Notes: generated by a model from the letters alone, not told the origin. A DNA stretch of 64,000 nt from Gammaproteobacteria bacterium (GCA_034520625.1 JAXHNI010000004.1:55070-119069), one strand, 5' to 3'. Shown: positions 2,306-59,794, numbered from the stretch's first letter. Made by a program: numbers and translations.

Positions 2306-3376
2306 ATGGATTCGCGAAGCCTGTTCTCCGGCGATTCCGTGCTGTCCCGGGTGCACCCCGCCGCGGTGGTGGCGGCAGTTTTCCTGATTGCCTTCCCGGC
2401 ATTCAGCTCTGATTTCTTCACCTACCAGATCGGCGCCTATTCGCTGCTGCTCGGCCTCGTGGCCCTGTCGTTGATGATGCTGGCGGGCTACGGCGGCATG
2501 GTGAGCCTCGCCCAGATGACGGTGGCGGGCCTGGCAGGCTACCTGGTGGCGATCCTCGGCCACAACAGCGTCGAGGTCATGGGGCTCGGCTGGCCGTGGT
2601 GGTTGACGGCCATCACCGCGATTTTTTGCGCAGCGCTGTTCAGCGCGTTCATCGGCGCGGTATCGGTCCGGACCGAAGGGATCTATATCATCATGATCAC
2701 CCTGGCCATCGCCGTGGCGTTCTTCTTCTTTGTCCGCCAGAACTATGCGCTGTTCAACGGCTTCACCGGCTATGCGGGGGTGGAGCCGCCGACCCTGTTC
2801 GGGATCTACTGGCGCGACCCGGTTCCCTTCTACTACCTCACGCTGGCGGTGGCGGCGGGTTTCCTGTGGGCGGTTTTCTATGCCTCGCGCTCGACCTTCG
2901 GCCTCACCCTGCAGGCGATCCGGGACAACCCGCGGCGCATGCGGGCGCTGGGGTTCAACGTCGCGTTTCACCGGATCTTCGCGTATTTCCTGTCCGGCCT
3001 GATCGCGGGCACCGCCGGTGTGCTGCTGGTGTGGTTCAACGGCCGGATCTCCCCCGGCTCGGTGAGCGTGGATGTGGTCATCGATATCCTGGTGATTGCC
3101 GTGATCGGCGGGCTACGGCACCCGATCGGCCCGTTCCTGGGCGCGATCCTCTTCGTCCTGCTGGAGAATTTCGCCATCGACCTCATTGACCGCGAGCGCT
3201 TCAACACGGTGATCGGTCTGGCATTCCTGCTGATCGTCCTGTTCTCGCCGGACGGGCTGCTGGGACTGTGGGAGCGGTTTCGCGCCCGGTTCAGCACTGA
3301 CAGAAAAGCGCGGTACACGAGTGACCGTGCTGAACAGATCGACGCGCATCCATCCGGATCCGTCGAAAACACGTAA
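2306..3376 (+). CDS. branched-chain-amino-acid-type ABC transporter permease (LivM-like)
   Basis: 356 aa polytopic membrane protein starting 4 nt after the LivH-like stop. LSLMMLAGYGGMVSLAQMTVAGLAGY and the later RDNPRRMRALGFNV are LivM-like motifs. Confidence 0.9.
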   Translation: MDSRSLFSGDSVLSRVHPAAVVAAVFLIAFPAFSSDFFTYQIGAYSLLLGLVALSLMMLAGYGGMVSLAQMTVAGLAGYLVAILGHNSVEVMGLGWPWWLTAITAIFCAALFSAFIGAVSVRTEGIYIIMITLAIAVAFFFFVRQNYALFNGFTGYAGVEPPTLFGIYWRDPVPFYYLTLAVAAGFLWAVFYASRSTFGLTLQAIRDNPRRMRALGFNVAFHRIFAYFLSGLIAGTAGVLLVWFNGRISPGSVSVDVVIDILVIAVIGGLRHPIGPFLGAILFVLLENFAIDLIDRERFNTVIGLAFLLIVLFSPDGLLGLWERFRARFSTDRKARYTSDRAEQIDAHPSGSVENT

Positions 3377-44631: not shown

Positions 44632-45384
44632 TCAGTTATACACCCGCGGCCCCACCACACGCCGGTTCGAGAACAGCTTTGACATCCGCTCGTCGTGGGG
44701 TATGCGCACGATGAGATTGTTCTCGACCAGGTGAATCTCGGTATCCCGTGCCTCCGGTTCCCCGTATACCCAGACGTTGTCGATCATCAGGCCGGCATGC
44801 TTGAAGTTATTGCAGATTTCATAACCGTTGCCTTCCCGGCCCCTGGGAAAACGGTCTCCGGCGAACGGACGGTCATCGGCGTAGAACTGAAACAGCGTGA
44901 ACTGGGAGAAGCAGGGCGCGCCGGATTGAATGGCCTGGGCATGCTCGCGGCTGTCGTCGAACAGGCGGCCCCTGGGCCCGAGATTCATGGACGCGCCGTT
45001 CATGGGCGCGTAGGCGCAGCCCACGGCGCGGGCGACATAGTAGGCGAGGGCGTCGTCGCCAAGCATGGCGGCCACGTTGTGGATGCTTTCCGTCGGGGAT
45101 CGCGTGCCGAGGGATTTCATTATCGCCTCCGTGTATCCGCCAACGACTTCCCGGCGTTCGGACTCGTAGGCCTCGTCGTTGTAGCTGCGATTGTAGACGT
45201 CGACGATGAACCGGCCGAACTCGGGGTCGTTTTCCGTGGCCTCGAAGATGCTGCGCGTCCCGTCGCGGGGCACGCCGCAGAATACGGTCACCTGCTCGCG
45301 GTTGGTCGCCAGCAGTTCCTTTCCGATCAATCTGTCCGTGTAGTCGCCGTAGATAATCATTCGGTTAACGGGTTCCTCCGTCAT
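44632..45384 (-). CDS. hypothetical protein, no family recognised
   Basis: ORF 44632-45651, trimmed to MTEEPVNRMIIYGDYTDRL... (250 aa). Protein-like composition with mixed hydrophobic/charged residues and low Arg bias, unlike the Arg-rich upstream extension. Start uncertain. Confidence 0.55.
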   Translation of the reverse strand: MTEEPVNRMIIYGDYTDRLIGKELLATNREQVTVFCGVPRDGTRSIFEATENDPEFGRFIVDVYNRSYNDEAYESERREVVGGYTEAIMKSLGTRSPTESIHNVAAMLGDDALAYYVARAVGCAYAPMNGASMNLGPRGRLFDDSREHAQAIQSGAPCFSQFTLFQFYADDRPFAGDRFPRGREGNGYEICNNFKHAGLMIDNVWVYGEPEARDTEIHLVENNLIVRIPHDERMSKLFSNRRVVGPRVYN

Positions 45385-45713
45385 GTTGTGAATGAACAGT
45401 GGGTTCAACTGCACCCACCAAACCTGTTTCCGACAGCCTCCGAACAGCCGGTGTACGAAACACGATTCGATACGCCGAGCAGTGCCGATCGACCGGGTCG
45501 GCATACAGAGAATTCCGGGGAGCACATGCCGATTCCGGCGGCGGCGTACCGATGCGAGTGCCGGCACGCGCCCGGGCCGGGGCGGCATGATGTTCAGTGT
45601 CCTGCGGCGCGGGGAATCCCGCGTTTCGGGCCCTCCCTGGGAGGAAGCCATGCCGCCGGCATGCTCCGCGCTTTTATTGCCACAGATTCACACTAATTGC
45701 AATAGGGGGGCGT

Positions 45714-45784: not shown

Positions 45785-47452
<1,668 letters not shown>

Positions 47453-47488
47453 TGCGTTCCCGCGGTCTGGTTTCAGGGGCCGCGTATT

Positions 47489-48598
47489 ATGGGAAACAAC
47501 ACCTCCTGCGTCTACGTGACCCGGGAATCGTCCCGATACCGGGATTGCCAATGGGGGAATCCGGCCCACTTGATACAGAAATTACGAAAGCACATCGGGC
47601 TTCTGGCCTATTTCACCGCCGGCACGGCCGTCGGGCTGTACCTTGTCCATCTGCTCGCCGGGGAGGTCGGCGCCCTGGTGGTGCGGCAGGGCATCGAAGG
47701 GGTTCTGCCCGTGGCCCTCGCGGCCATCGGCTGGTTCATCGTTCCCCTGTACGCGGCGACCCGCTCCTGGCGATTGCTGTTTCCCTCCGGCACCGGTCCC
47801 GGGCCCTGGAAGTCGGCGGAGCTGACCTGGATCGGATTGAGCGTGAACTGGCTCTTGCCGGCGGCGCTGGTGGGTGGTGAGCTGGTCAAGCTCAGGCTGG
47901 CGCGGCGGCGGATCCTGGATTCCGGAAACCTGGTGGCCAGCCTCGTCGGCGACAAGACGATTCAGGTGGCCACGCAACTGGTATACACGCTACTGGGCCT
48001 GTCGATACTCGCCTGGGTGAGCGGCCGGGTGGTGGGCGGGCTGCGCGAGGCGGTCGGACTCCTCGCGTTCGCCGGCGTGGTTTATCTTTTCTATCGAATC
48101 CAGCGGGGCGGTCTGTTCGCCCGGGCGGCGATGCCCCTCAGGCGATTGGTACGGGATCGGGCCCGGCTCGGGATAAACGCGGCCCGCATGGATGCGGCGA
48201 TCGAGGAGATGTACCAGCGCCCGGGGCGGTTGTGGCTGTCGGCAGGGTGGCGAATGGCCTTCCGGTTGCTCATGGCGGGAGAGGTCGCTCTGGTTTTCTG
48301 GTGGCTCGAGTACCCGGCCGGGTTGCTCACAGTGCTGGCGCTGGAAAGCATGGCCCAGGCGTCCCGGGTCGCGGCCCTGGCTATCCCGGCTGCGATCGGT
48401 GCCCAGGAAGCGGTCATCGTCGCCGCCGGGCTGTTCCTGGGTTGTCCGCCCGAAGTGCTGATCGGCGTCGCTGTGGTGAAGCGGATCAGGGAGCTGGGTA
48501 TAGGGGGGGCGGGCCTAGTGGCCTGGCAACTCAAGGAGATGCGGGCCTTCGCTCGCGGCGGTTCTGAGGACCGGGGAAACTCCGTAGCTCGCCACTGA
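47489..48598 (+). CDS. flippase-like / lysylphosphatidylglycerol-synthase-TM-domain family membrane protein (UPF0104, HpnL-like)
   Basis: About 8 TM spans, with R/K-rich loops such as LVKLRLARRRILDSGNLVASLVGDKTIQ. Start codon uncertain because the N-terminal 30 aa are atypical. Confidence 0.7.
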   Translation: MGNNTSCVYVTRESSRYRDCQWGNPAHLIQKLRKHIGLLAYFTAGTAVGLYLVHLLAGEVGALVVRQGIEGVLPVALAAIGWFIVPLYAATRSWRLLFPSGTGPGPWKSAELTWIGLSVNWLLPAALVGGELVKLRLARRRILDSGNLVASLVGDKTIQVATQLVYTLLGLSILAWVSGRVVGGLREAVGLLAFAGVVYLFYRIQRGGLFARAAMPLRRLVRDRARLGINAARMDAAIEEMYQRPGRLWLSAGWRMAFRLLMAGEVALVFWWLEYPAGLLTVLALESMAQASRVAALAIPAAIGAQEAVIVAAGLFLGCPPEVLIGVAVVKRIRELGIGGAGLVAWQLKEMRAFARGGSEDRGNSVARH

Positions 48599-48663
48599 TA
48601 CCGGGCAATTCGCTGTCTCACTACGAAAGTCACACTATCAGTGGGTTATGACGAAATGAGGCC

Positions 48664-48716
48664 ATTGTGGGTCGGGCTTGATGCCTGACTTGTCAGCCTT
48701 GAAGGCTGACCCACAT
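48664..48716. repeat. double-hairpin REP-like element, family 6 (GTGGGTCrGGC...GCCTGAC-wT-GTCAGCCTTrAAGGCTGAsCCACA)
   Basis: ATTGTGGGTCGGGCTTGATGCCTGACTTGTCAGCCTTGAAGGCTGACCCACAT. A second copy lies at 59741-59794. Confidence 0.8.
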
Positions 48717-48792
48717 GGGCTTTCCATTCTTTCTTGTTACTTCGGCCCGCTGTGGCGCATTCTCGCTACGGATATTTCCACGACACAAGATC

Positions 48793-49401
48793 CTAACTGT
48801 CGTCGTTGCCGCTGGCGTTGCCACTCTGACCCGGCGGATCGCCGCTTTGCCCCGGCGGGTTGCCGTCCAATCCCGGCGGGTTGCCGCCCTGACCGGAACC
48901 GGGAAAGTTCTCCTCGACCTCGATGTTTCCGGGCGTGGCGAAGCCCTGTTCCATGTCTACGACGATATCGTTGACGCTGACCCTGGCTCCCGCGGGGACG
49001 GTCCCGATGGGGAGGGCGACCGTTTTCTCGTCCTCGAAGACGAAGCTCAGCACGAAGTTGTCGCTTGGTGACACGTCTTCGAGCACGAAGTTGCCGTTAT
49101 CGTCGGTGGTGGTGAGCTGCCCGCCGCCGAACACCTGAATGCCGCCCAAGAAAGTCAGCTGTGCGTTGACGGGCTGGGCCACCCAGTTCATCACTCCGGC
49201 GATCATTCGTCGGACCATGGCCTGTTCAGCATCCGGGCCGTCAGCAATGATCTGCGACACGTTGCCGGTCACCGTGGTAATGCCCGTTCCGCCGATACCG
49301 GAGTCGCCACTGCCCACGGTGGTGGTGCCGCTGCCGCAGGAAGACAATATCAGCGTCAGGGCCAGCAGCAGTGGAACGAGAATCCGGGGTGGAATGGTCA
49401 T
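48793..49401 (-). CDS. lipoprotein with carboxypeptidase-regulatory-like (Ig-like) domain and Gly/Asn/Pro-rich tail (paralog A)
   Basis: MTIPPRILVPLLLALTLILSSCG (lipobox). GTGITTVTGNVSQIIADGP..., TTDDNGNFVLEDVSPSDNFVLSFVF. Tail GGNPPGLDGNPPGQSGDPPGQSGNASGNDDS. Confidence 0.75.
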   Translation of the reverse strand: MTIPPRILVPLLLALTLILSSCGSGTTTVGSGDSGIGGTGITTVTGNVSQIIADGPDAEQAMVRRMIAGVMNWVAQPVNAQLTFLGGIQVFGGGQLTTTDDNGNFVLEDVSPSDNFVLSFVFEDEKTVALPIGTVPAGARVSVNDIVVDMEQGFATPGNIEVEENFPGSGQGGNPPGLDGNPPGQSGDPPGQSGNASGNDDS

Positions 49402-49462
49402 GCGAGTGACGGAATGATCAGGTCGACAGGTCCGGGTTCGCTTGTGGATACGGTGAACATAG

Positions 49463-49479
49463 GTGGGATGTGTGCCCAC
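49463..49479. promoter_or_regulatory. palindromic motif GTGGGATG-T-GTGCCCAC upstream of lipoprotein A (copy 1 of 3)
   Basis: 62-78 nt upstream of the ATG at 49401. The extended match TGAACATAGGTGGGATGTGTGCCCACGTCAAG is shared with the copy at 50389-50420. Confidence 0.55.
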
Positions 49480-49721
49480 GTCAAGCGTGCCCGTGCCGGC
49501 CGGTTTTACCGGTGTTCCGCCAGTTGACTCGGGCTGTGGCGTGCCGTGGACGGTGACGACGGGGTTCCCCTGGTCTGCGACGCAGTGCGGATCAATGTGG
49601 GGTGCCCGGCTGTGTCTGCCCGTTGCTGGCGCCAGGCAGCCATTGTCGGAGAGGCCGGACGGAGGTCGACGGTGACAAACCGCGCGTTCCGGGAAACGAT
49701 GACCGCACGGCCAACGGATAG

Positions 49722-50327
49722 TCAGCCGTTGCTGTCCTGATCGCTGTTATCGTCGCTCTCGTCGTCGCTGTTGTCGTCACCGTCGTCATCACTGAGGTCA
49801 TCGCTGTCATCGTCCGCCGATCCGCCGCTGTCCTGGATCTCTATCCCGCCGGCCGTCGCGAAGCCCTGGCCGGTGTCGACCAGAATGTTGATCACGCGGA
49901 TACGGGCACCGTCCGGTACAGACCCGATGGGCAGCAGGATCGGATCTTCGTCCGGGAGCACGAACCTGAGTACGAAATTGTCGCTGGGGGTAACGTCCTC
50001 GAGTATGAACTCGCCGCTGTCATTCGTGGTCGTCACGCGCCCGCCGCCGATGACCTGAATGCCGGCCAGGGAGCCCGATTGCGCGTTGACCGGCGTCGCA
50101 AGCCAGTCCACTGTACCGGCGAGCAGTTTCCGGGTGAGTGTCTGGTTGGCCGGGCCCGCGGCCACGACCTGGGACACATTACCCGTCACCGTGGTGATGC
50201 CCGTGCCGCCGACCCCGGAGCCGCCCACGCCGGCCGTGGTGCCGGAGCCGCCGCCGCACGATGACAACGCGAGCGCCAGTATTAGAATAAGAGGGCCGAG
50301 GCAGAGGGACCGTGTGGTAGGTTGCAT
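49722..50327 (-). CDS. lipoprotein with carboxypeptidase-regulatory-like domain and poly-acidic tail (paralog B)
   Basis: MQPTTRSLCLGPLILILALALSSCGG. Roughly 60 percent identical by eye to paralog A (GTGITTVTGNVSQVVAAGP, TTNDSGEFILEDVTPSDNFVLRFVL). Tail DDDSDDLSDDDGDDNSDDESDDNSDQDSNG. Confidence 0.75.
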   Translation of the reverse strand: MQPTTRSLCLGPLILILALALSSCGGGSGTTAGVGGSGVGGTGITTVTGNVSQVVAAGPANQTLTRKLLAGTVDWLATPVNAQSGSLAGIQVIGGGRVTTTNDSGEFILEDVTPSDNFVLRFVLPDEDPILLPIGSVPDGARIRVINILVDTGQGFATAGGIEIQDSGGSADDDSDDLSDDDGDDNSDDESDDNSDQDSNG

Positions 50328-50397
50328 GGTGGTTTTTTCAGCTGACAGAACTTGCAGTTTACAGAAACGGTTATATTCTGGGGTAAACTGAACATAT

Positions 50398-50414
50398 GTG
50401 GGAATGATTTCCAC
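50398..50414. promoter_or_regulatory. palindromic motif GTGGGAAT-G-ATTTCCAC in the divergent region between lipoprotein B and the HTH-like gene (copy 2 of 3)
   Basis: 71-87 nt upstream of ATG 50327 and 30-46 nt upstream of ATG 50444. Confidence 0.55.
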
Positions 50415-50443
50415 GTCAAGTACGCCAGATCGAACCAGACCAG

Positions 50444-51322
50444 ATGGGATCTCCATCCGACTCAGTGACGAAGTCCGACTCGAAACCGACCGCCCCGGCC
50501 GGTCCGGAGGCGTTGAGAACCGCCGTGATGCGGGTACTCCGACCCCTGGTCGGCCTACTCATGGAGCACGGACTGACCTTCCCGTGGCTGAGCGGGGTGC
50601 TCAAGACAGTGTTCGTGGACGTGGCAGAGAAGGAATTCCGCCTGCCGGACAAGCGCCAGACCGACAGCCGGGTGACACTGCTCACCGGTGTTCACCGCAA
50701 GGATGTCCGGCGACTTCGCCACGAGCACGACCCGTCGGAATCCGCTCCTCCGGCGAGCGTTTACCTAGGTGCCCACCTGGTGGCCGTGTGGACCAGTGAC
50801 GAGCGATTCCTGGATCTGCAGGGGCGGCCCAAGCCGCTGACGCGGCTGCCGAGCGGCAACGCGCCCAGCTTCGAGAAACTGGTGACCGGCATCAGCAAGG
50901 ATATCCGCCCGAGGGCGGTGCTGGATGAGTTGCTGCGGCTCGGTGCCGTGGAAATCGACGACAACGACTGCGTGCGCCTGCAGACCGACGCTTTCATCCC
51001 CTCCAAGGGTTTCGACGAAAAAGCCTACTACCTGGGCCGCAACGTCCACGACCATATCGCGGCCGCCCGCCACAACGTGCAGGGCGGCGACCCCCCGTTC
51101 CTGGAACGCAGTGTCTACTACGACGATCTTTCGGCGGAGTCTGTCAGGGAACTGGATGAGCTCGCCCGGTTGGAAGGCATGAAGCTGCTTCAGATGGTGA
51201 ATCGCCGCGCCCGGGAACTGCAGGCCGTTGACGTGGAGGCCGGCAACACCGGTTCCCGGGTCAATTTCGGCCTGTATTTCTACCACGGTCCCGACGACGA
51301 GGACTCTGCGGCGAACCAGTAG
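50444..51322 (+). CDS. hypothetical protein with a probable N-terminal helix-turn-helix; candidate regulator of the lipoprotein island
   Basis: 292 aa. The segment QTDSRVTLLTGVHRKDVRRLR looks like an HTH recognition unit. The remainder is soluble and alpha-helical-looking. Family not confidently recognised; start uncertain. Confidence 0.65.
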   Translation: MGSPSDSVTKSDSKPTAPAGPEALRTAVMRVLRPLVGLLMEHGLTFPWLSGVLKTVFVDVAEKEFRLPDKRQTDSRVTLLTGVHRKDVRRLRHEHDPSESAPPASVYLGAHLVAVWTSDERFLDLQGRPKPLTRLPSGNAPSFEKLVTGISKDIRPRAVLDELLRLGAVEIDDNDCVRLQTDAFIPSKGFDEKAYYLGRNVHDHIAAARHNVQGGDPPFLERSVYYDDLSAESVRELDELARLEGMKLLQMVNRRARELQAVDVEAGNTGSRVNFGLYFYHGPDDEDSAANQ

Positions 51323-51432
51323 CCGCGTCTTTACCCGGTTTTTCTCCCTCGATTAGACCGCGCGTCGGCACAGGCGCTGCGTTCGTCAGGCACGCCTGTC
51401 GGGAAACGCGCCAGGGACGTAGACTAGTTTAA

Positions 51433-51449
51433 GTGGGAAATTTTCCCAC
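51433..51449. promoter_or_regulatory. perfect palindrome GTGGGAAA-T-TTTCCCAC upstream of lipoprotein C (copy 3 of 3)
   Basis: 77-93 nt upstream of ATG 51526. 8+8 bp perfectly complementary around one central base. Confidence 0.6.
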
Positions 51450-51525
51450 ACAAGTGTTTCGGCCGGCTCATTCGTGGATGACTGACTCTGCCGGACTTTA
51501 TTCACGTTTCCGTGAGGTAGTAAAG

Positions 51526-52155
51526 ATGAACAAATTGATCAAAGGACAGGTAATCACCCTGTTCGCCCTCCTGACGGCCATGGTGGTTACCCTGGCCGCC
51601 TGCGGCGGCGGCAGCAGCTCCTCCGGCGGCAGCTCGGCATCGGGGGCCACGGTGGCCGGCACCGTCGACAACGGCGTCGCGACGCTGTACCGCCTGGAAG
51701 ACCAACGTCCGATACTGGCTGCCCTCACTGACATGCTGATCGAGCCGTCCCACGCCGCGGGCGTGGCCGGTGTCACCGTCGAGCTGGTCAACAGTTCCGG
51801 TGCGGTCGTCGGATCCCAGACCACCGATGCCAGCGGCCGGTTCATGTTCACTGGCCTGGTGCCCGACAGCTATTCCATCCGCCTGTCCCAGAACGGCGCC
51901 CCCCTGGGCGAGACCCCGGTCATCCAGGTCGATCCCGACACCCGGACCGAGATAAGATTGGCCCTCAGCGGCGCGGTCACCTCCGTCAACGTCCAGGCCC
52001 GGAACGACCAGGTTTCCGGCCAGGTCCGCGGGGACGACGACAGCAGCGACGATGACAGTCTCGATGACGACAGCAGTGATGACGACAGTCTCGACGACGA
52101 CAGCAGTGACGACGTCAGCGACGATGACCCTGACGACGACAGCAGTAACACCTGA
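51526..52155 (+). CDS. lipoprotein with carboxypeptidase-regulatory-like domain and poly-acidic SDDD-repeat tail (paralog C)
   Basis: GAGG RBS. MNKLIKGQVITLFALLTAMVVTLAACGG (lipobox). GVTVELVNSSGAVVGSQTTDASGRFMFTGLVPDSYSIRL. Tail GDDDSSDDDSLDDDSSDDDSLDDDSSDDVSDDDPDDDSSNT. Confidence 0.8.
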   Translation: MNKLIKGQVITLFALLTAMVVTLAACGGGSSSSGGSSASGATVAGTVDNGVATLYRLEDQRPILAALTDMLIEPSHAAGVAGVTVELVNSSGAVVGSQTTDASGRFMFTGLVPDSYSIRLSQNGAPLGETPVIQVDPDTRTEIRLALSGAVTSVNVQARNDQVSGQVRGDDDSSDDDSLDDDSSDDDSLDDDSSDDVSDDDPDDDSSNT

Positions 52156-52208
52156 TGACTTCGCAATGAGGCATTCAACCCGAACACCGACCTCCGATAC
52201 GACGCGGA

Positions 52209-52982
52209 TTGACTGACCCAAGCCAAAGACGGTCGGATGCTGCGGCCGGTGCCACCCTGCTCGAGGTGGACACCGGCCGTTTTTTATGGGCGGTGTTTCT
52301 GGGCTGCCTGATCATCGAAGTTGCCCTGGTGTATCTCGACCTGACGGTCAACTGGTGGCGCTGGAGCGACAGCGGGGCGATACGGCGTCTTTTCAACACT
52401 ACCCGGGAAGACGGCTTGGCTTCCTGGTTCATGATCTCCCAGACGCTCATCGCCGCTCTCGTGGCCTGGATGATCTTCGCGGTGCTGGTTCATCAGAAAA
52501 CCACGGCCGGCCGCCGGATCGGCTGGTTTGTCGTCGCTGCCTTCTTCACCTACATGTGCGCCGACGACGGGGCGCTGATCCACGAGCGCGTCGGTACTGC
52601 ATTCAAGGACAGCACCGGTATCGGCAGCTTTCCGAGTTATGCCTGGCAGTACGTGCTGATGCCTTTCTTTGCCACGATGGGCGTATTCATTCTGTTGTTC
52701 CTCTGGAAGGAGATGCCGCGAACACGGGACCGGGTGAAAGTCGTCGCGGCGCTCGGATGCTTTGCGGCCGCCGTCGCCCTGGACTTCGTGGAGGGCCTGG
52801 ACGAAGGCTATCGCTTGTTGGTGGATGCCACGGGTTGGCGGCCCGCGACATTCCGCCATTTTTCCAAGTCCCTGGAGGAATTCCTGGAGATGCTGGTCAT
52901 GACCATTTTCCTGGTGACCTTCCTCGGCCATCTGGCGTCGGTGGCGCCCCGGCTGGAGGTACGCAGCGTCGGCGGAGACTAG
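52209..52982 (+). CDS. integral membrane protein, hypothetical (about 6 TM)
   Basis: TTG start in the track (uncertain). Hydrophobic spans FLWAVFLGCLIIEVALVYL, WFMISQTLIAALVAWMIFAVLV, WFVVAAFFTYMCA, YVLMPFFATMGVFILLFLW, VVAALGCFAAAVALDF, LEMLVMTIFLVTFLGHL. Confidence 0.6.
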   Translation: MTDPSQRRSDAAAGATLLEVDTGRFLWAVFLGCLIIEVALVYLDLTVNWWRWSDSGAIRRLFNTTREDGLASWFMISQTLIAALVAWMIFAVLVHQKTTAGRRIGWFVVAAFFTYMCADDGALIHERVGTAFKDSTGIGSFPSYAWQYVLMPFFATMGVFILLFLWKEMPRTRDRVKVVAALGCFAAAVALDFVEGLDEGYRLLVDATGWRPATFRHFSKSLEEFLEMLVMTIFLVTFLGHLASVAPRLEVRSVGGD

Positions 52983-53032
52983 TGCCGCAGGAGACTAGTG
53001 CCGCAGGAAAGTCGAAGGCCGAGTTTGCCAAG

Positions 53033-54064
53033 CTATTCGCCGGACGGGACATTCGCCCGCGGATCGAGCGGGAATCGCAGCAGGCCGCGCTTTTTGTAGT
53101 CAGCCACGGCATCGCGCAGGGTGTCTTCCAGCGGTCGCGGCGACCAGCAGAGTGTCCGGCGGGTTTCCCGGTTGTCGAAGGTAACCGGCACCCCGGCCAG
53201 CCTGATGCCGGAGAAGGGCGCCGCCGGGGGGCGATGGGTAATCCAGTCGGCGATCAGCTCGTTGACGGCCCCGGCTGCGTATGCGAGCGCATAGGGGACG
53301 CGCCGCTTTACCATCTCTCGGCCCGCCAGCTCGCCAAGCAGCGCCAGCATTCGGCCTATGCGTACGTCGTGGGCACCGAGGATGTATCGTTGTCCGGCCT
53401 CGCCGTGTTCGGCGGCCAGCCAGTGGCCCTCGGCGATGTCCCGGGCGTCGGCCAGGTTGAGGGTGCTGTCGAGGTAAGCCGGATAGGCGCCGTTCAGAAA
53501 GCCGAGCATCATCCGAGTCGGCGGCGTGATCCAATGGTCCCCGGGGCCGGCCGGAATCGTCGGATTGACAATGACCACCCGCCGGCCCTCGCCCGCGGCA
53601 TGCCGCGCTTCCTGCTCGGCGAGATATTTTCCGCGGCAATACGCCCCCGCCATCTCCGAAAGCCGGCATTCGGTGTGCTCGTTCACCGTCTGTGGCCGGC
53701 GTCCCCTGCCCATGGCGATCAATACGGATTCCGTGGAGGTATGCACAATCGTTTCGACGCCTGTCCGTCGGCCGGCGTCGAGGACGTTGCGTGTTCCGGT
53801 CCGGTTGACGGTGACGAAGGCTTTCTTGTCCGGTCCCCACAGCCCCGACAGCGCGGCGAGGTGGAAAATTCTGCGGCAACCTCCGGCGGCGCGCGCCACC
53901 GCTGCCGCATCGGCAATCGATTCCTGTTGATAGTCGACACCGGCAATGGGTTCGATGGGGGCCTTCAGGTCCAGCACCCGGACCGCTTCACCGCGCCGGC
54001 GAAGCAGCTCGACCAGATGCGTCCCGATGAAGCCGCAGCCGCCGGTAACGAGGTTCAATCCCAT
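53033..54064 (-). CDS. NAD-dependent epimerase/dehydratase (SDR; HpnA/dihydroflavonol-reductase-like)
   Basis: Rossmann motif LVTGGCGFIGTHLVELL. Catalytic YxxxK in AYCRGKYLAE. Confidence 0.85.
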   Translation of the reverse strand: MGLNLVTGGCGFIGTHLVELLRRRGEAVRVLDLKAPIEPIAGVDYQQESIADAAAVARAAGGCRRIFHLAALSGLWGPDKKAFVTVNRTGTRNVLDAGRRTGVETIVHTSTESVLIAMGRGRRPQTVNEHTECRLSEMAGAYCRGKYLAEQEARHAAGEGRRVVIVNPTIPAGPGDHWITPPTRMMLGFLNGAYPAYLDSTLNLADARDIAEGHWLAAEHGEAGQRYILGAHDVRIGRMLALLGELAGREMVKRRVPYALAYAAGAVNELIADWITHRPPAAPFSGIRLAGVPVTFDNRETRRTLCWSPRPLEDTLRDAVADYKKRGLLRFPLDPRANVPSGE

Positions 54065-54099
54065 GACATACCCATGACGGCGATTTTAGTCCAAACTGA

Positions 54100-55278
54100 A
54101 TGCCGTCCATTCACACTCGACAGCAACGCCCGACCCCGGATTCCATCGTGCCGCAGCACCCGCCGACACCCACCTGGAACCACCCGCTGTTCGGCGCGGA
54201 CCCGCTGACGCTGCTGGCCGCCCTGGCATGCAACAGGCCCTTCAGCGCGGGTGTCCGGCCCCTGGCCGGCGCGATGGTGGTCGCAGCGCTGCTGCGCGCC
54301 CCCGCGTCGCTGTGTGAGCACGCCTGGACCGTCGCCGGACTCCGGCGGCTGCCGCCGCCGCGGTCGCCGGTCTTCATTCTCGGCCACTGGCGCAGCGGCA
54401 CCACACACCTGTTCAATCTCCTGAGCCGGGACCCGGCCTTCGCCTGGCCCGATCCGTTTGCCGCGGGACTGCCCTGGGATTTCCGGATACTGGGGCGACT
54501 GGCCCGGCCGCTGATGAAGCGGGCCCTGCCGGAGAACCGGTACATCGACGACGTGGCCGTGGATCCCGACTCTCCCCAGGAGGATGAGATCGCTCTGGCG
54601 TCCATGCAGAATGTCTCCTATTACCACGCGGTCTATTTTCCAAGGCGCTTCGAGTCGTGGTACCGGCGGGGCGTATTCCTGGAAGGCGTCAGCGACCGGC
54701 ACCTCGCGCGCTGGCGCCGTCGATTCGAGTACTACCATGGCAAACTGCTGGCAGCCCGGCCCGGAGCGACGCTGCTGGTCAAGAATCCCGTTTATACGGG
54801 CCGGGTCGCGCTCATCCGGAGAATCTGGCCGGATGCCCGGTTCATTCACATCCATCGCAATCCCTACGTGGTGTTCGAGTCGACCCGGAAGTTCCATCGC
54901 GCACTGCTCCGGCGGTTTGCGCTGCAGGGCTTCGACGAGGACATTGCCGAGCAATTCATCGAGGTGACATATCCCAGGATGATCGAGAACCTGTACGCGG
55001 ACGTTGCGGACCTGGGCAGTGACCGCTTCGTCGAGCTGAGCTTCGATTCACTGGAAGACGAGCCGCTCGCTCAGCTGGAACGGATCTATACTTCACTGGG
55101 GCTTCCGGGCTTCCCGGAGATGTATCCGGAATTCCAGGCCTACCTGGATTCCGTCGCGCATTACAGGAAAAGCGGACATGTATTCACCAAAGAAACCATC
55201 GACAGGGTGGACCGGCACTGGGACGGGCTGGTGCGCCGGTGGTCCTACTCGCCGCCGAAGGACGGGCATCCGCGGTGA
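54100..55278 (+). CDS. sulfotransferase family protein
   Basis: 5'-PSB-like motif VFILGHWRSGTTHLFNLLSRDP and 3'-PB-like LLVKNPVYTGRVALIRRIWPDARFIHIHRNP. Confidence 0.8.
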   Translation: MPSIHTRQQRPTPDSIVPQHPPTPTWNHPLFGADPLTLLAALACNRPFSAGVRPLAGAMVVAALLRAPASLCEHAWTVAGLRRLPPPRSPVFILGHWRSGTTHLFNLLSRDPAFAWPDPFAAGLPWDFRILGRLARPLMKRALPENRYIDDVAVDPDSPQEDEIALASMQNVSYYHAVYFPRRFESWYRRGVFLEGVSDRHLARWRRRFEYYHGKLLAARPGATLLVKNPVYTGRVALIRRIWPDARFIHIHRNPYVVFESTRKFHRALLRRFALQGFDEDIAEQFIEVTYPRMIENLYADVADLGSDRFVELSFDSLEDEPLAQLERIYTSLGLPGFPEMYPEFQAYLDSVAHYRKSGHVFTKETIDRVDRHWDGLVRRWSYSPPKDGHPR

Positions 55279-56546
55279 TTGAAACCTTCAGGAACGTGGC
55301 CTCGCTCCTGCTGGGCTATGCGTTGATGATCATGGCCAATGCGTTGTTCAACACCCTGTTGGGCATCCGCATGGAGTTGGAGCAGTTCGGTGCCACGGTA
55401 ACCGGCACGGTCATGAGTGCCTATTTCGTCGGCCTGCTGATCGGCGCCCGCTCGGTGTCGCGCGTCATCACGCGGGTCGGGCATATCCGCTGCTTTGGCC
55501 TGTTCGCGTCCATCATCTCCATTACCGCTCTGGTCCACATCCTGTGGGTGGACCCCGTGGTATGGGGCACCATGCGCATCATGTCGGGTTTCTGCATGGC
55601 CGGCATGATCACCATTACGGAAAGCTGGTTGAACGCGCGTACCGACAACAAGCACCGGGGCCAGGTGCTTTCCTGGTACATGATCACCAATTACGCGGCC
55701 GCGGGTCTGGGCCAGTTTCTGCTGCCGCTGGCGGACCCGGGCGAGTTCGTCCTGTTCTGCCTGATATCGATCCTGTTCTCCGCGGCGTTGATCCCGGTCA
55801 TGGTGACCCGCGCCAGTGCCCCCCGGCCCTCGCCCCCGGCCCGGGTATCCATCAAGTATCTCTACCATCTGGCACCGCTGGCCTGCATCGGGGCCGTCGG
55901 CTCCGGCATGATGAACGCCAGTTTCTACAGCCTGGCGCCGGTGTTTACCCAGCGAATCGGCCTGTCCCTGAACCAGACGTCGCTGTTCATGGCGATTACC
56001 GTGATGAGCGGGATGCTGCTGCAGTGGCCCCTGGGACGGCTTTCGGACCGGATCGGACGGGGCAATATTCTGGGAAGCGTCACCATCGTCACCGGGCTGG
56101 CCTGCTTCGGCATCGCCGTATTCGGCGCCCAGGCGGGACCCTGGTTGTTCCCGTTGGCCGCGGTCTACGGCGGTACCGTGTTCACGGTCTATTCCATATC
56201 CTCGGCGCAGGCCAATGATCTGACCGAGCCGGACAATCTGGTACTGACGGCCGGGGCGCTGCTGATCGCTTTCGGCATCGGCGCCATCATCGGTCCGATG
56301 ATCGGCGGCGTGGTCATGCGAACCATCAGCCCCGGTGCGCTGTTCGGCGTGAACGGGGTCATTGCCTTCCTGATCGCCCTGTACGCGTTCCGGAGGTCGG
56401 CGGCGGTCCGGCGGGCCCGGGCACTCGGGGTTTTCCTGCCCAGCCCCGGCAGCCAGTTCACGTCCGGCCTGCTGCACCGCCGGGTGCGGGACCAGATCGA
56501 CCGCGACCTGCGGCGCTACGGCCAGTACTCCGGGCGGCGCTTCTGA
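55275..56546 (+). CDS. MFS transporter
   Basis: GTGA start/stop overlap with the sulfotransferase gene (the track's start is 55239). 12 hydrophobic spans, with an MFS loop motif GRLSDRIGRGNIL. Confidence 0.8.
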   Translation: MIETFRNVASLLLGYALMIMANALFNTLLGIRMELEQFGATVTGTVMSAYFVGLLIGARSVSRVITRVGHIRCFGLFASIISITALVHILWVDPVVWGTMRIMSGFCMAGMITITESWLNARTDNKHRGQVLSWYMITNYAAAGLGQFLLPLADPGEFVLFCLISILFSAALIPVMVTRASAPRPSPPARVSIKYLYHLAPLACIGAVGSGMMNASFYSLAPVFTQRIGLSLNQTSLFMAITVMSGMLLQWPLGRLSDRIGRGNILGSVTIVTGLACFGIAVFGAQAGPWLFPLAAVYGGTVFTVYSISSAQANDLTEPDNLVLTAGALLIAFGIGAIIGPMIGGVVMRTISPGALFGVNGVIAFLIALYAFRRSAAVRRARALGVFLPSPGSQFTSGLLHRRVRDQIDRDLRRYGQYSGRRF

Positions 56547-59736: not shown

Positions 59737-59740
59737 TGGG

Positions 59741-59794
59741 GTGGGTCAGGCTTTGCGCCTGACATGTCAGCCTTAAAGGCTGAGCCACAATGGC
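59741..59794. repeat. family-6 double-hairpin REP-like element (second copy)
   Basis: GTGGGTCAGGCTTTGCGCCTGACATGTCAGCCTTAAAGGCTGAGCCACAATGGC. Confidence 0.8.

Follow-up and report, generated by a model that had tools for sequence, protein, structure and literature searches.

We analyzed a 64,000-nucleotide stretch of DNA from a gammaproteobacterium (hereafter the window, with positions counted from its first letter), which derives from a salt-pan metagenome, and describe here a five-gene cassette located between positions 48,793 and 52,982. Two genes on the minus strand, A (48793-49401, 202 amino acids) and B (49722-50327, 201 amino acids), specify predicted lipoproteins of a common type, henceforth the A/B-type. 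On the plus strand these are followed by D (50444-51322, 292 amino acids), which specifies a predicted cytoplasmic protein of the DUF6502 family, C (51526-52155, 209 amino acids), which specifies a predicted lipoprotein of a second type (C-type), and E (52209-52982, 257 amino acids), which specifies a six-helix membrane protein. All five open reading frames (ORFs) are present as they had been delineated in an initial interpretation of this DNA made from the letters alone (the sequence-only reading). Our results suggest that D is an autoregulated repressor which, together with a 17-bp palindromic operator, would control the lipoproteins and the membrane protein of this cassette.

The DUF6502 protein D

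The product of D matches the Pfam family DUF6502 (PF20112) with 129.8 bits (E 1.1e-37; gathering threshold 27 bits), with residues 23-283 aligning to positions 3-262 of the 268-position profile. Searches against Pfam and NCBIfam gave no other match for this protein, and those against PADLOC gave none. More than 2158 homologues were found, and D is about 50% identical to sequences from Pseudomonas, Aromatoleum, Gallionellaceae, Rhodospirillaceae, Myxococcota and Planctomycetota. A literature search for DUF6502 and PF20112 found no papers.

An AlphaFold (AF2) model of D, built from 39 homologues, has a predicted local distance difference test (pLDDT) of 74.7 and a predicted TM-score (pTM) of 0.48. 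It displays a helical N-terminal domain, a helix-turn-helix (HTH) with helices at residues 74-81 and 85-94 separated by a turn (SRVTLLTG-VH-RKDVRRLRHE), a second winged-helix-like unit at approximately residues 143-179 and long C-terminal helices. The residues S75, R76, L80, G82, H84, R85, K86 and D87 are invariant in the 39 sequences, and an H-D-H motif is conserved. D had initially been described as a soluble protein with a probable HTH. The modelled HTH, its invariant Arg/Lys-rich second helix and the palindrome that travels with DUF6502 (see below) lend indirect support to this description, and D was not assigned to any non-DNA-binding family. A profile search of the PDB with D drew in a coiled-coil match, Gp34, which we judged to be spurious.

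A 17-bp palindrome at the promoters of the cassette

The candidate operators share the consensus GTGGGAA-N3-TTCCCAC, with half-site centres 10 bp apart. They comprise OA (49463-49479, GTGGGATGTGTGCCCAC) upstream of A, OB/D (50398-50414, GTGGGAATGATTTCCAC) between B and D, and OC (51433-51449, GTGGGAAATTTTCCCAC) upstream of C, the last being a perfect 8-1-8 palindrome. No further AT-centred copies of the palindrome were found in the 64-kb window besides those at the cassette. Sigma-70-like promoters of the form TTGACG-17-TATGTT are predicted on the minus strand upstream of both A (49456-49484) and B (50391-50419), and their spacers are filled by OA and OB/D, respectively. Both were recovered by a promoter scan that was independent of the palindrome reading and that returned 3 promoter-like sites against 0.7 expected. 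The promoter block of A and B is duplicated, with the two copies being 78% identical over 32 nt and 935 nt apart. We also considered the long region upstream of A as a decayed 5' end of D, and rejected this since only a promoter block of about 95 nt is shared.

On its other side, OB/D takes up the stretch 30-46 nt upstream of the D start codon (ATG), where it overlaps the predicted -35 element and spacer of the divergent D promoter. OC lies 77-93 nt upstream of the start of C, and a candidate -10 element for this gene, TAGACT (51420-51425), is found 7 nt upstream of OC, which would thus cover the transcription start of C. The promoter-operator geometry of B/D is conserved in 13 related loci, and in 5 of these a perfect TATAAT lies on the D side, 6 nt past the palindrome; with the -10 element of D in this position, the site would also cover the -35 side of the D promoter. 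In 12 related loci the C-type gene has a site equivalent to OC upstream of it, and so it does in loci L207 and L210 (locus labels are those of our collection). In the C-type genes of related loci the palindrome falls 7-8 nt after a -35/-10 pair, several of which have clear elements. Given that the palindrome is placed either in a promoter spacer or over a transcription start, these positions are those expected of a repressor. Thus, the coordinate regulation that had been proposed for these genes is strongly supported, with one 17-bp palindrome overlapping the predicted promoters of A and C and the divergent pair that serves B and D. The upstream regions had also been described as conspicuously AT-rich relative to the surrounding DNA, which holds for the B/D intergenic region (GC content 0.57) and the region upstream of C (0.59), but not for that upstream of A (0.65).

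Linkage of the palindrome to DUF6502 across genomes

A genome scan detected DUF6502 loci in Gamma-, Beta- and Alphaproteobacteria, Myxococcota and Planctomycetota, including Pseudomonas putida and Aromatoleum. Linkage with the palindrome was quantified in 81 non-redundant loci spanning 882 kb, with the expectation obtained from composition-preserving shuffles. In this set the exact form GTGGGA[AT]5TCCCAC occurs 48 times as against 0.01 expected, and 45 of these 48 occurrences are within 1.5 kb of D. When up to one mismatch is allowed, the palindrome reaches a density of 0.43 per kb near D, compared with 0.038 per kb in the remaining sequence. A site is present between -250 and +30 of the D start in 58 of 80 loci; in most lineages it is situated 10-100 nt upstream of the DUF6502 gene irrespective of the neighbouring genes, and many distant loci have two or three tandem sites upstream of D. 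In a reverse test, we took 120 metagenome contigs chosen solely because they contain GTGGGAAWWWTTCCCAC. DUF6502 is encoded on 42 of them and lies within 300 nt of the site in 39 of these 42; among contigs with at least 1.2 kb on either side of the site, it was found on 20 of 43.

When a palindrome stays fixed to the promoters of a single gene family whose neighbours vary, this is a standard comparative sign of a DNA-binding protein that regulates its own gene. As the palindrome stays with the DUF6502 promoter despite the changing neighbourhoods, we infer that D would bind it as a dimer. The presence of the conserved palindrome both at the D promoter and at those of neighbouring genes suggests that D is an autoregulated, operator-binding regulator.

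Certain occurrences of the palindrome merit separate mention. In P. putida PSE9 (L042, 5153-5824), and likewise in L118, L159 and L168, a gene for a secreted Gly/His-rich protein with repeats of the type (GGEPGDDHGNHV)n lies directly 3' of a perfect palindrome. In Pseudomonas genomes this gene precedes DUF6502 by about 900 nt; it is also present on metagenome contigs with no DUF6502 within several kb, and may be an unlinked member of the regulon. Another contig of 5.1 kb (L085), with almost no long ORFs and no DUF6502, has four exact palindromes within about 200 nt (2870-3074); this sequence is possibly unrelated to the cassette.

DUF6502-DUF5666 cassettes in other lineages

Outside the lineage of the window, DUF6502 is followed by a secreted protein of the DUF5666 family in 59 of the 81 loci and by a 250-residue outer-membrane-protein-like (OMP-like) protein in 52 loci, and a gene for a small secreted protein often comes before it; the Pseudomonas loci have the Gly/His-rich protein noted above as the neighbour. 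The neighbours in these canonical cassettes contain repeated G-[IV]-GGTG motifs near their N-termini, the same motif as that after the lipobox of A and B, and have charged repeats at their ends, for instance (EKVEKP)n or (ERPEI)n. We considered the possibility that the A/B-type lipoproteins are truncated DUF5666 proteins and rejected it: only the 10-residue GIGGTG motif aligns, and homology is not demonstrated. RefSeq labels these proteins only as 'hypothetical', 'DUF6502 family protein' or 'DUF5666 domain-containing protein', and in the literature we found DUF5666 in gene lists only, with no functional statement. The OMP-like protein has a signal peptide and the C-terminal end ...GGGMMVGYTY, and is specified 3' of the DUF5666 genes across L016-L083 (for example, L042 8762-9517 and L080 8421-9173); it had no Pfam or NCBIfam match.

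The lipoproteins A, B and C

Each of the three lipoproteins has a signal peptide with an n-region and an h-region and a lipobox (LSSC with Cys22 in A, LSSC with Cys24 in B and LAAC with Cys26 in C), which bears out their prediction as exported lipoproteins. A lipobox is present in 33 of 34 A/B-type homologues. In all three proteins the lipobox Cys is followed by Gly and then by a Gly/Ser linker, which in A and B includes the GIGGTG motif (GIGGTGI in the linker of A). In E. coli, the residue at position +2 after the lipid-bearing Cys decides between inner-membrane and outer-membrane sorting; by this rule, the Gly at +2 in A, B and C would direct them to the outer membrane via the Lol pathway, and weakly suggests that they reside there.

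The three proteins had been called paralogous. This description fits A and B well, as they are close paralogues with 59% identity (E 5e-47). B and C gave no BLASTP alignment, and the relationship of C is apparent only at the level of family profiles: the A/B-type and C-type profiles align with an hhalign probability of 99% (E 3.5e-18) over residues 1-123, indicating that C is a distant paralogue of A and B. A carboxypeptidase-regulatory-like beta-sandwich signature had likewise been attributed to each of the three, and it is recovered above threshold in C alone. In Pfam, C matches CarboxypepD_reg (PF13620) with 44.3 bits (gathering threshold 32.3) and SdrD_B (PF17210) with 40.8 bits (cut-off 29.7). 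In contrast, A reaches 16.9 bits with CarboxypepD_reg, which is under the Pfam threshold of 32.3, B has no match to this family, and neither A nor B matches SdrD_B. The NCBIfam models SdrD and SdrC score C with 20 bits (cut-off 2500) and 19 bits (cut-off 1700), respectively, while A and B had no above-threshold match in the Pfam, NCBIfam or PADLOC scans.

The low-complexity C-terminal tails are as originally claimed: that of A is Gly/Pro-rich with GNPPG-type repeats and a net charge of -6, whereas those of B and C are Asp/Ser-rich, with net charges of -18 and -22, respectively, the last being encoded by DNA with a 15-nt period. Across 34 of 34 A/B-type homologues the tail is of low complexity and nearly devoid of Lys and Arg, and its chemistry falls into three types, namely polyacidic (about half of them), Gly/Pro-rich like that of A, and Asn-rich. 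The tails of C-type proteins are acidic in every complete ortholog, being either Asp/Ser or poly-Gly-Glu. Hence, tails are always present and never basic, but their acidity is conserved only in the C-type proteins. Binding of cations or mineral surfaces by the tails, as proposed in the sequence-only reading, is weakly suggested; they may tentatively be regarded as cation binders or as a charged, hydrated brush in the envelope. Hints of a link to cations or metals, which are circumstantial, come from the tails in so far as they are polyanionic, from the SdrD-B-type domain, from partner proteins of other lineages that are His-rich (Pseudomonas) or have Cys/His repeats (Candidatus Spongiihabitans), and from the H-D-H motif of D. 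A keyword search of the literature on acidic-tail lipoproteins returned nothing relevant.

In Candidatus Spongiihabitans (L003, 9992-11077) a third lipoprotein gene lies 3' of the C-type gene, and its product has three tandem Cys/His-rich repeats of about 37 residues (ICHLPETGDQKTLFVTEPEYIAEHKVHGDIIGECK). The C-type protein of L019 (7157-7966) terminates in a single copy of this motif. The motif matched no Pfam family and could be a metal site.

The membrane protein E

The model of E is confident (pLDDT 91.6, pTM 0.88) and has six long helices, in agreement with the earlier estimate of about six transmembrane segments. E had also been termed an orphan, and this does not hold: it has 313 close homologues, its family comprises 6152 representative clusters by profile search, and it recurs directly after C-type lipoproteins. 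It had no match in the Pfam, NCBIfam or PADLOC scans; a sequence profile search against the PDB was empty, and Foldseek returned generic helical bundles with a best E of 0.2. Within the family 18 charged or polar residues are invariant, including many Asp, Glu, His and Arg residues (among them D119, D120, H125, E126, D192, E195, H217, E223 and E224), and when the positive-inside rule is applied to the loops these residues would, in our reading, face the periplasm.

E starts 53 nt downstream of C, with which it is probably co-transcribed. It follows a C-type lipoprotein in L001, L004, L010, L012, L014, L204, L205 and L210; five scanned genome loci, as well as L210, have it after an acidic-tail C-type protein inside the cassette. 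In L204 and L205 the C-type gene and E occur together yet without D and without the palindrome, and three other E homologues stand alone. As E sometimes pairs with the C-type protein and sometimes stands alone, the two form a recurrent but not obligatory pair, and there is a weak indication that E works with C on the periplasmic side. Fusions within the E family are limited to proteins in which E is duplicated in tandem; these are found in P0275, P0276 and P0375 (458-528 amino acids), and their N-terminal copy is degenerate, with most of the acidic and His residues that are otherwise invariant no longer present. The E homologue in L204 is situated among genes for lipid metabolism, namely GT4, PEMT, CMAS and a CDP-alcohol phosphatidyltransferase.

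A proposed repressor-operator circuit and its alternatives

The interpretation that best accounts for these observations is that D is an autoregulated dimeric HTH repressor, with A, B and C-E as its local regulon; we consider it probable on the whole, and ascribe these targets to D with fair confidence. A D dimer would bind the 17-bp palindrome through its HTH. On OA it would occupy the 17-nt spacer of the A promoter, on OB/D both the spacer of the B promoter and the -35 side of the divergent D promoter, and on OC it would sit just past the -10 element of C. From these operator positions, binding of D should repress A, B, D itself, C and the downstream E, until some signal releases it. The products released from repression would be lipoproteins that are each built of a flexible tether of Gly and Ser, a single prealbumin-like beta-sandwich and a tail that is disordered and non-basic, and in B and C strongly polyanionic, along with E, a putative inner-membrane partner that recurs beside C-type lipoproteins.

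Several points weigh against this interpretation. In Pfam, NCBIfam and the PDB profile search, D has no sequence match to any known DNA-binding family. Its model is of moderate confidence, as seen in the pLDDT and pTM values above, and its fold matches in Foldseek, though all of them are to DNA-binding regulators, are not significant: the best is HetR (E 0.047, TM-score about 0.3), followed at E >0.5 by the winged-helix regulators PcaR (IclR), FadR (GntR) and MarR-family proteins. Among the operators, OA has a G/C-rich centre in the window and a degenerate arm in L207, and the C promoter in the window has, as we read it, a poor -35 element. D is absent from about half of those metagenome contigs that have the palindrome and ample flanks, implying that some sites arise by chance or belong to unlinked regulon members. 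The sequencing runs that carry the window sequence, being from the salt-pan metagenome, are DNA only, and no RNA-seq was found. Finally, the chemistry of the A/B-type tails is not conserved, which weakens the case for a strictly anionic function.

The non-acidic A/B-type tails leave room for a hydrophilin-like or spacer role. According to this alternative, the lipoproteins are hydrophilin-like or act as an 'entropic bristle', and their hydrated tails would shield the envelope or act as spacers in it during osmotic or desiccation stress, rather than binding specific ions. It agrees with the origin of the window in a salt pan, with the retention of disorder and the lack of basic residues, rather than acidity, in A/B-type tails, with the E/K/R/P-repeat tails of the canonical cassettes and with the Gly-rich nature of the co-regulated Pseudomonas protein. 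However, the cassette is also present in sponge symbionts and in soil and freshwater bacteria, and the C-type tails are uniformly polyanionic. We consider such a role unlikely, though less so than the other alternatives.

The mode of regulation could also be the opposite of that proposed, with D acting as an activator, the palindromes being activator sites and the cassette being on when D is bound. The weak -35 element of the C promoter in the window could require activation, and the two or three tandem sites upstream of D in many distant loci would fit either mode. Against this, the sites of A and B fill a spacer of the normal 17 nt, flanked by a -35 element close to consensus and a fair -10 element, and those of C-type genes come just after the -10 element; both the spacer and the region past the -10 element are classical repressor positions. 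Activators of the MerR type, which do bind in the spacer, use promoters with spacers of 19-20 nt, unlike those seen here. Accordingly, we regard activation by D as unlikely.

Still less likely, in our estimation, is that D does not bind DNA at all but, for instance, acts in the cytoplasm on the disordered exported proteins as their chaperone or adaptor, with the palindrome being read by another factor or being structural. D matches no HTH family, and for a transcription factor its identity of about 50% across phyla would be unusually high. Nevertheless, a palindrome that sits upstream of DUF6502 whatever its neighbours bears the mark of autoregulation, the second helix of the modelled HTH is basic and invariant, and a deeply conserved HTH is well suited to a deeply conserved operator. 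Moreover, the site is too short and too AT-centred for a terminator hairpin.

We also see little likelihood that the lipoproteins are small Sdr-like adhesins that attach to surfaces or minerals. C does pass the Pfam threshold for the SdrD B-like domain, shows the weak matches to the SdrD and SdrC models and has an Asp/Ser-rich tail. Yet these proteins lack both a ligand-binding A domain and an LPXTG anchor, they are only about 200 residues long, and their tail ends freely at the C-terminus and does not form a stalk linking a domain to an anchor.

Conservation and surroundings of the cassette

The relatives of the window are labelled as Arenicellales or Gammaproteobacteria metagenome-assembled genomes. 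In close relatives D is 81-82% identical and the flanking genes are identical in kind, with HutF, an ABC-F protein and the HpnL-like gene on one side, and the HpnA-like gene, a sulfotransferase, an MFS (major facilitator superfamily) transporter and pyrophosphatases on the other. Between these conserved flanks they have a single A/B-type gene, then D, C and E. The flanks are kept together with the cassette in L001, L207 and L214, and L207 retains a tandem pair of B-type and A-type genes, each with its own tail type. More distant genomes preserve a core consisting of an A/B-type lipoprotein gene divergent from D, followed by a C-type gene and sometimes by E, in different surroundings. For example, the core cassette of Candidatus Spongiihabitans is in a context unlike that of the window, and that of L210 adjoins znuA-zur-znuCB. 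In all, the same cassette was found in at least three distinct flanking contexts; an A/B-type homologue is the divergent neighbour of the DUF6502 gene in every context visible, and most of these contexts also have a C-type lipoprotein after D. The homologues are clustered rather than scattered.

The sequence-only reading had spoken of an island, and a horizontally acquired genomic island appears highly improbable here: a REP-like hairpin does bound the region, GC is slightly lower in two intergenic stretches and the A/B-type family is restricted to the lineage, but the same genes flank the cassette in several relatives, contradicting this idea, scans of window genes and profiles found no integrase or transposase genes in the cassette region and no tRNA genes in the region, and the coding GC of the cassette (0.61-0.69) resembles that of its flanks. 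The cassette is vertically inherited and is not an island. None of the five proteins matched the anti-phage defence models of PADLOC, and Rfam gave no match within 47000-54500.

The hairpin in question (48664-48716, no strand) lies between the convergent HpnL-like gene and gene A, and has a minimum free energy of -40.7 kcal/mol (z -5.45). A second similar hairpin is located at 59740-59789, after the H+-pyrophosphatase gene, giving two copies in the 64-kb window, and both of them lie directly after gene ends. Given the strength of the hairpin and the second copy, the earlier designation as a REP element is reasonable in the form 'REP-like'; the structure is probably either a bidirectional terminator or a repeated extragenic palindrome (REP), and lies outside the cassette proper. 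The immediate flanks (47489-48598 and 53033-56546) specify an HpnL-like/LPG_synthase_TM membrane protein, an HpnA-like short-chain dehydrogenase/reductase, a Sulfotransfer_3 protein and the MFS transporter. The HpnL and HpnA scores are under the NCBIfam cut-offs, and these genes may constitute a lipid or glycolipid-sulfation block. Further out, an ORF on the minus strand (44632-45651) had no Pfam or NCBIfam match; it probably starts at an internal Met, and it is conserved in L001 (3069-3797), where the gene at this position specifies 242 residues.

Wider implications

A broader interpretation, which we offer as a tentative possibility, is that DUF6502 constitutes an ancient multi-phylum family of transcription factors with one 17-bp operator, governing exported envelope proteins with extreme disordered tails, and that together these form an unrecognised envelope system, perhaps for cation or metal buffering or for surface conditioning. 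On this reading, the targets would be the DUF5666 and OMP-like proteins in most Proteobacteria, and the beta-sandwich lipoproteins along with E, with its new fold, in the Arenicellales-like lineage. If D does act as proposed above, a Pfam domain of unknown function would become a transcription-factor family with a defined operator, and this operator could be used to predict the regulon across hundreds of genomes, including those of tractable bacteria such as Pseudomonas putida, Azospirillum, Rhizobium and Aromatoleum. The analysis also draws attention to widespread, unstudied exported proteins whose sole common feature is an extreme low-complexity tail, and to the large membrane protein family typified by E, which has a confidently predicted fold and no solved relative. 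No paradigm is changed by these results; rather, several 'hypothetical proteins' become one testable system.

Comparison with known systems

The kind of regulon proposed here, in which a regulator acts through an operator on genes for envelope proteins, is familiar, whereas the regulator family, the operator, the lipoprotein families and E are uncharacterised. The top Foldseek match of D, the cyanobacterial heterocyst regulator HetR, is an HTH DNA-binding protein of similar length. However, with E 0.047-0.097, a TM-score of 0.27-0.30, a root-mean-square deviation of about 15 Å and no sequence similarity, it is not a credible fold match. The staphylococcal Sdr/MSCRAMM proteins SdrC and SdrD share with C an SdrD-B-type prealbumin-like beta-sandwich followed by an Asp/Ser-rich region. 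C differs from them in coming from a Gram-negative host, in its N-terminal lipid anchor in place of a C-terminal LPXTG, in the lack of an A domain, in the presence of a single B-like domain, and in its D/S tail, which is a free end with no strict SD dipeptide repeat.

The canonical DUF6502-DUF5666-OMP-like cassette of Pseudomonas putida, Aromatoleum, Azospirillum, Rhizobium and other bacteria, which is itself uncharacterised, has the same regulator family and palindrome as the window, and both have exported neighbours with G-[IV]-GGTG motifs and low-complexity C-terminal tails. The lineage of the window lacks the DUF5666 protein and the OMP-like gene and has, instead, short lipoproteins of the CarboxypepD_reg type and E. 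The tails differ too, being D/S, G/P or N-rich in the window and made of E/K/R/P repeats in the canonical cassette. The window thus represents a lineage-specific variant of a widespread, uncharacterised module.

Local repressors of the TetR, MarR, IclR and GntR kind resemble the proposed system in several respects: like D, as modelled, they are small cytoplasmic HTH proteins with a divergent target gene, and they have a palindromic operator that lies over both promoters with half-sites one helical turn apart. The weak fold matches of D to PcaR, FadR and MarR-family proteins point in the same direction. By sequence, D falls outside all four of these families, and its architecture differs from theirs, with about 290 residues, two HTH-like units and a long helical C-terminus. 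Furthermore, its operator is conserved across phyla, which is unusual among local repressors.

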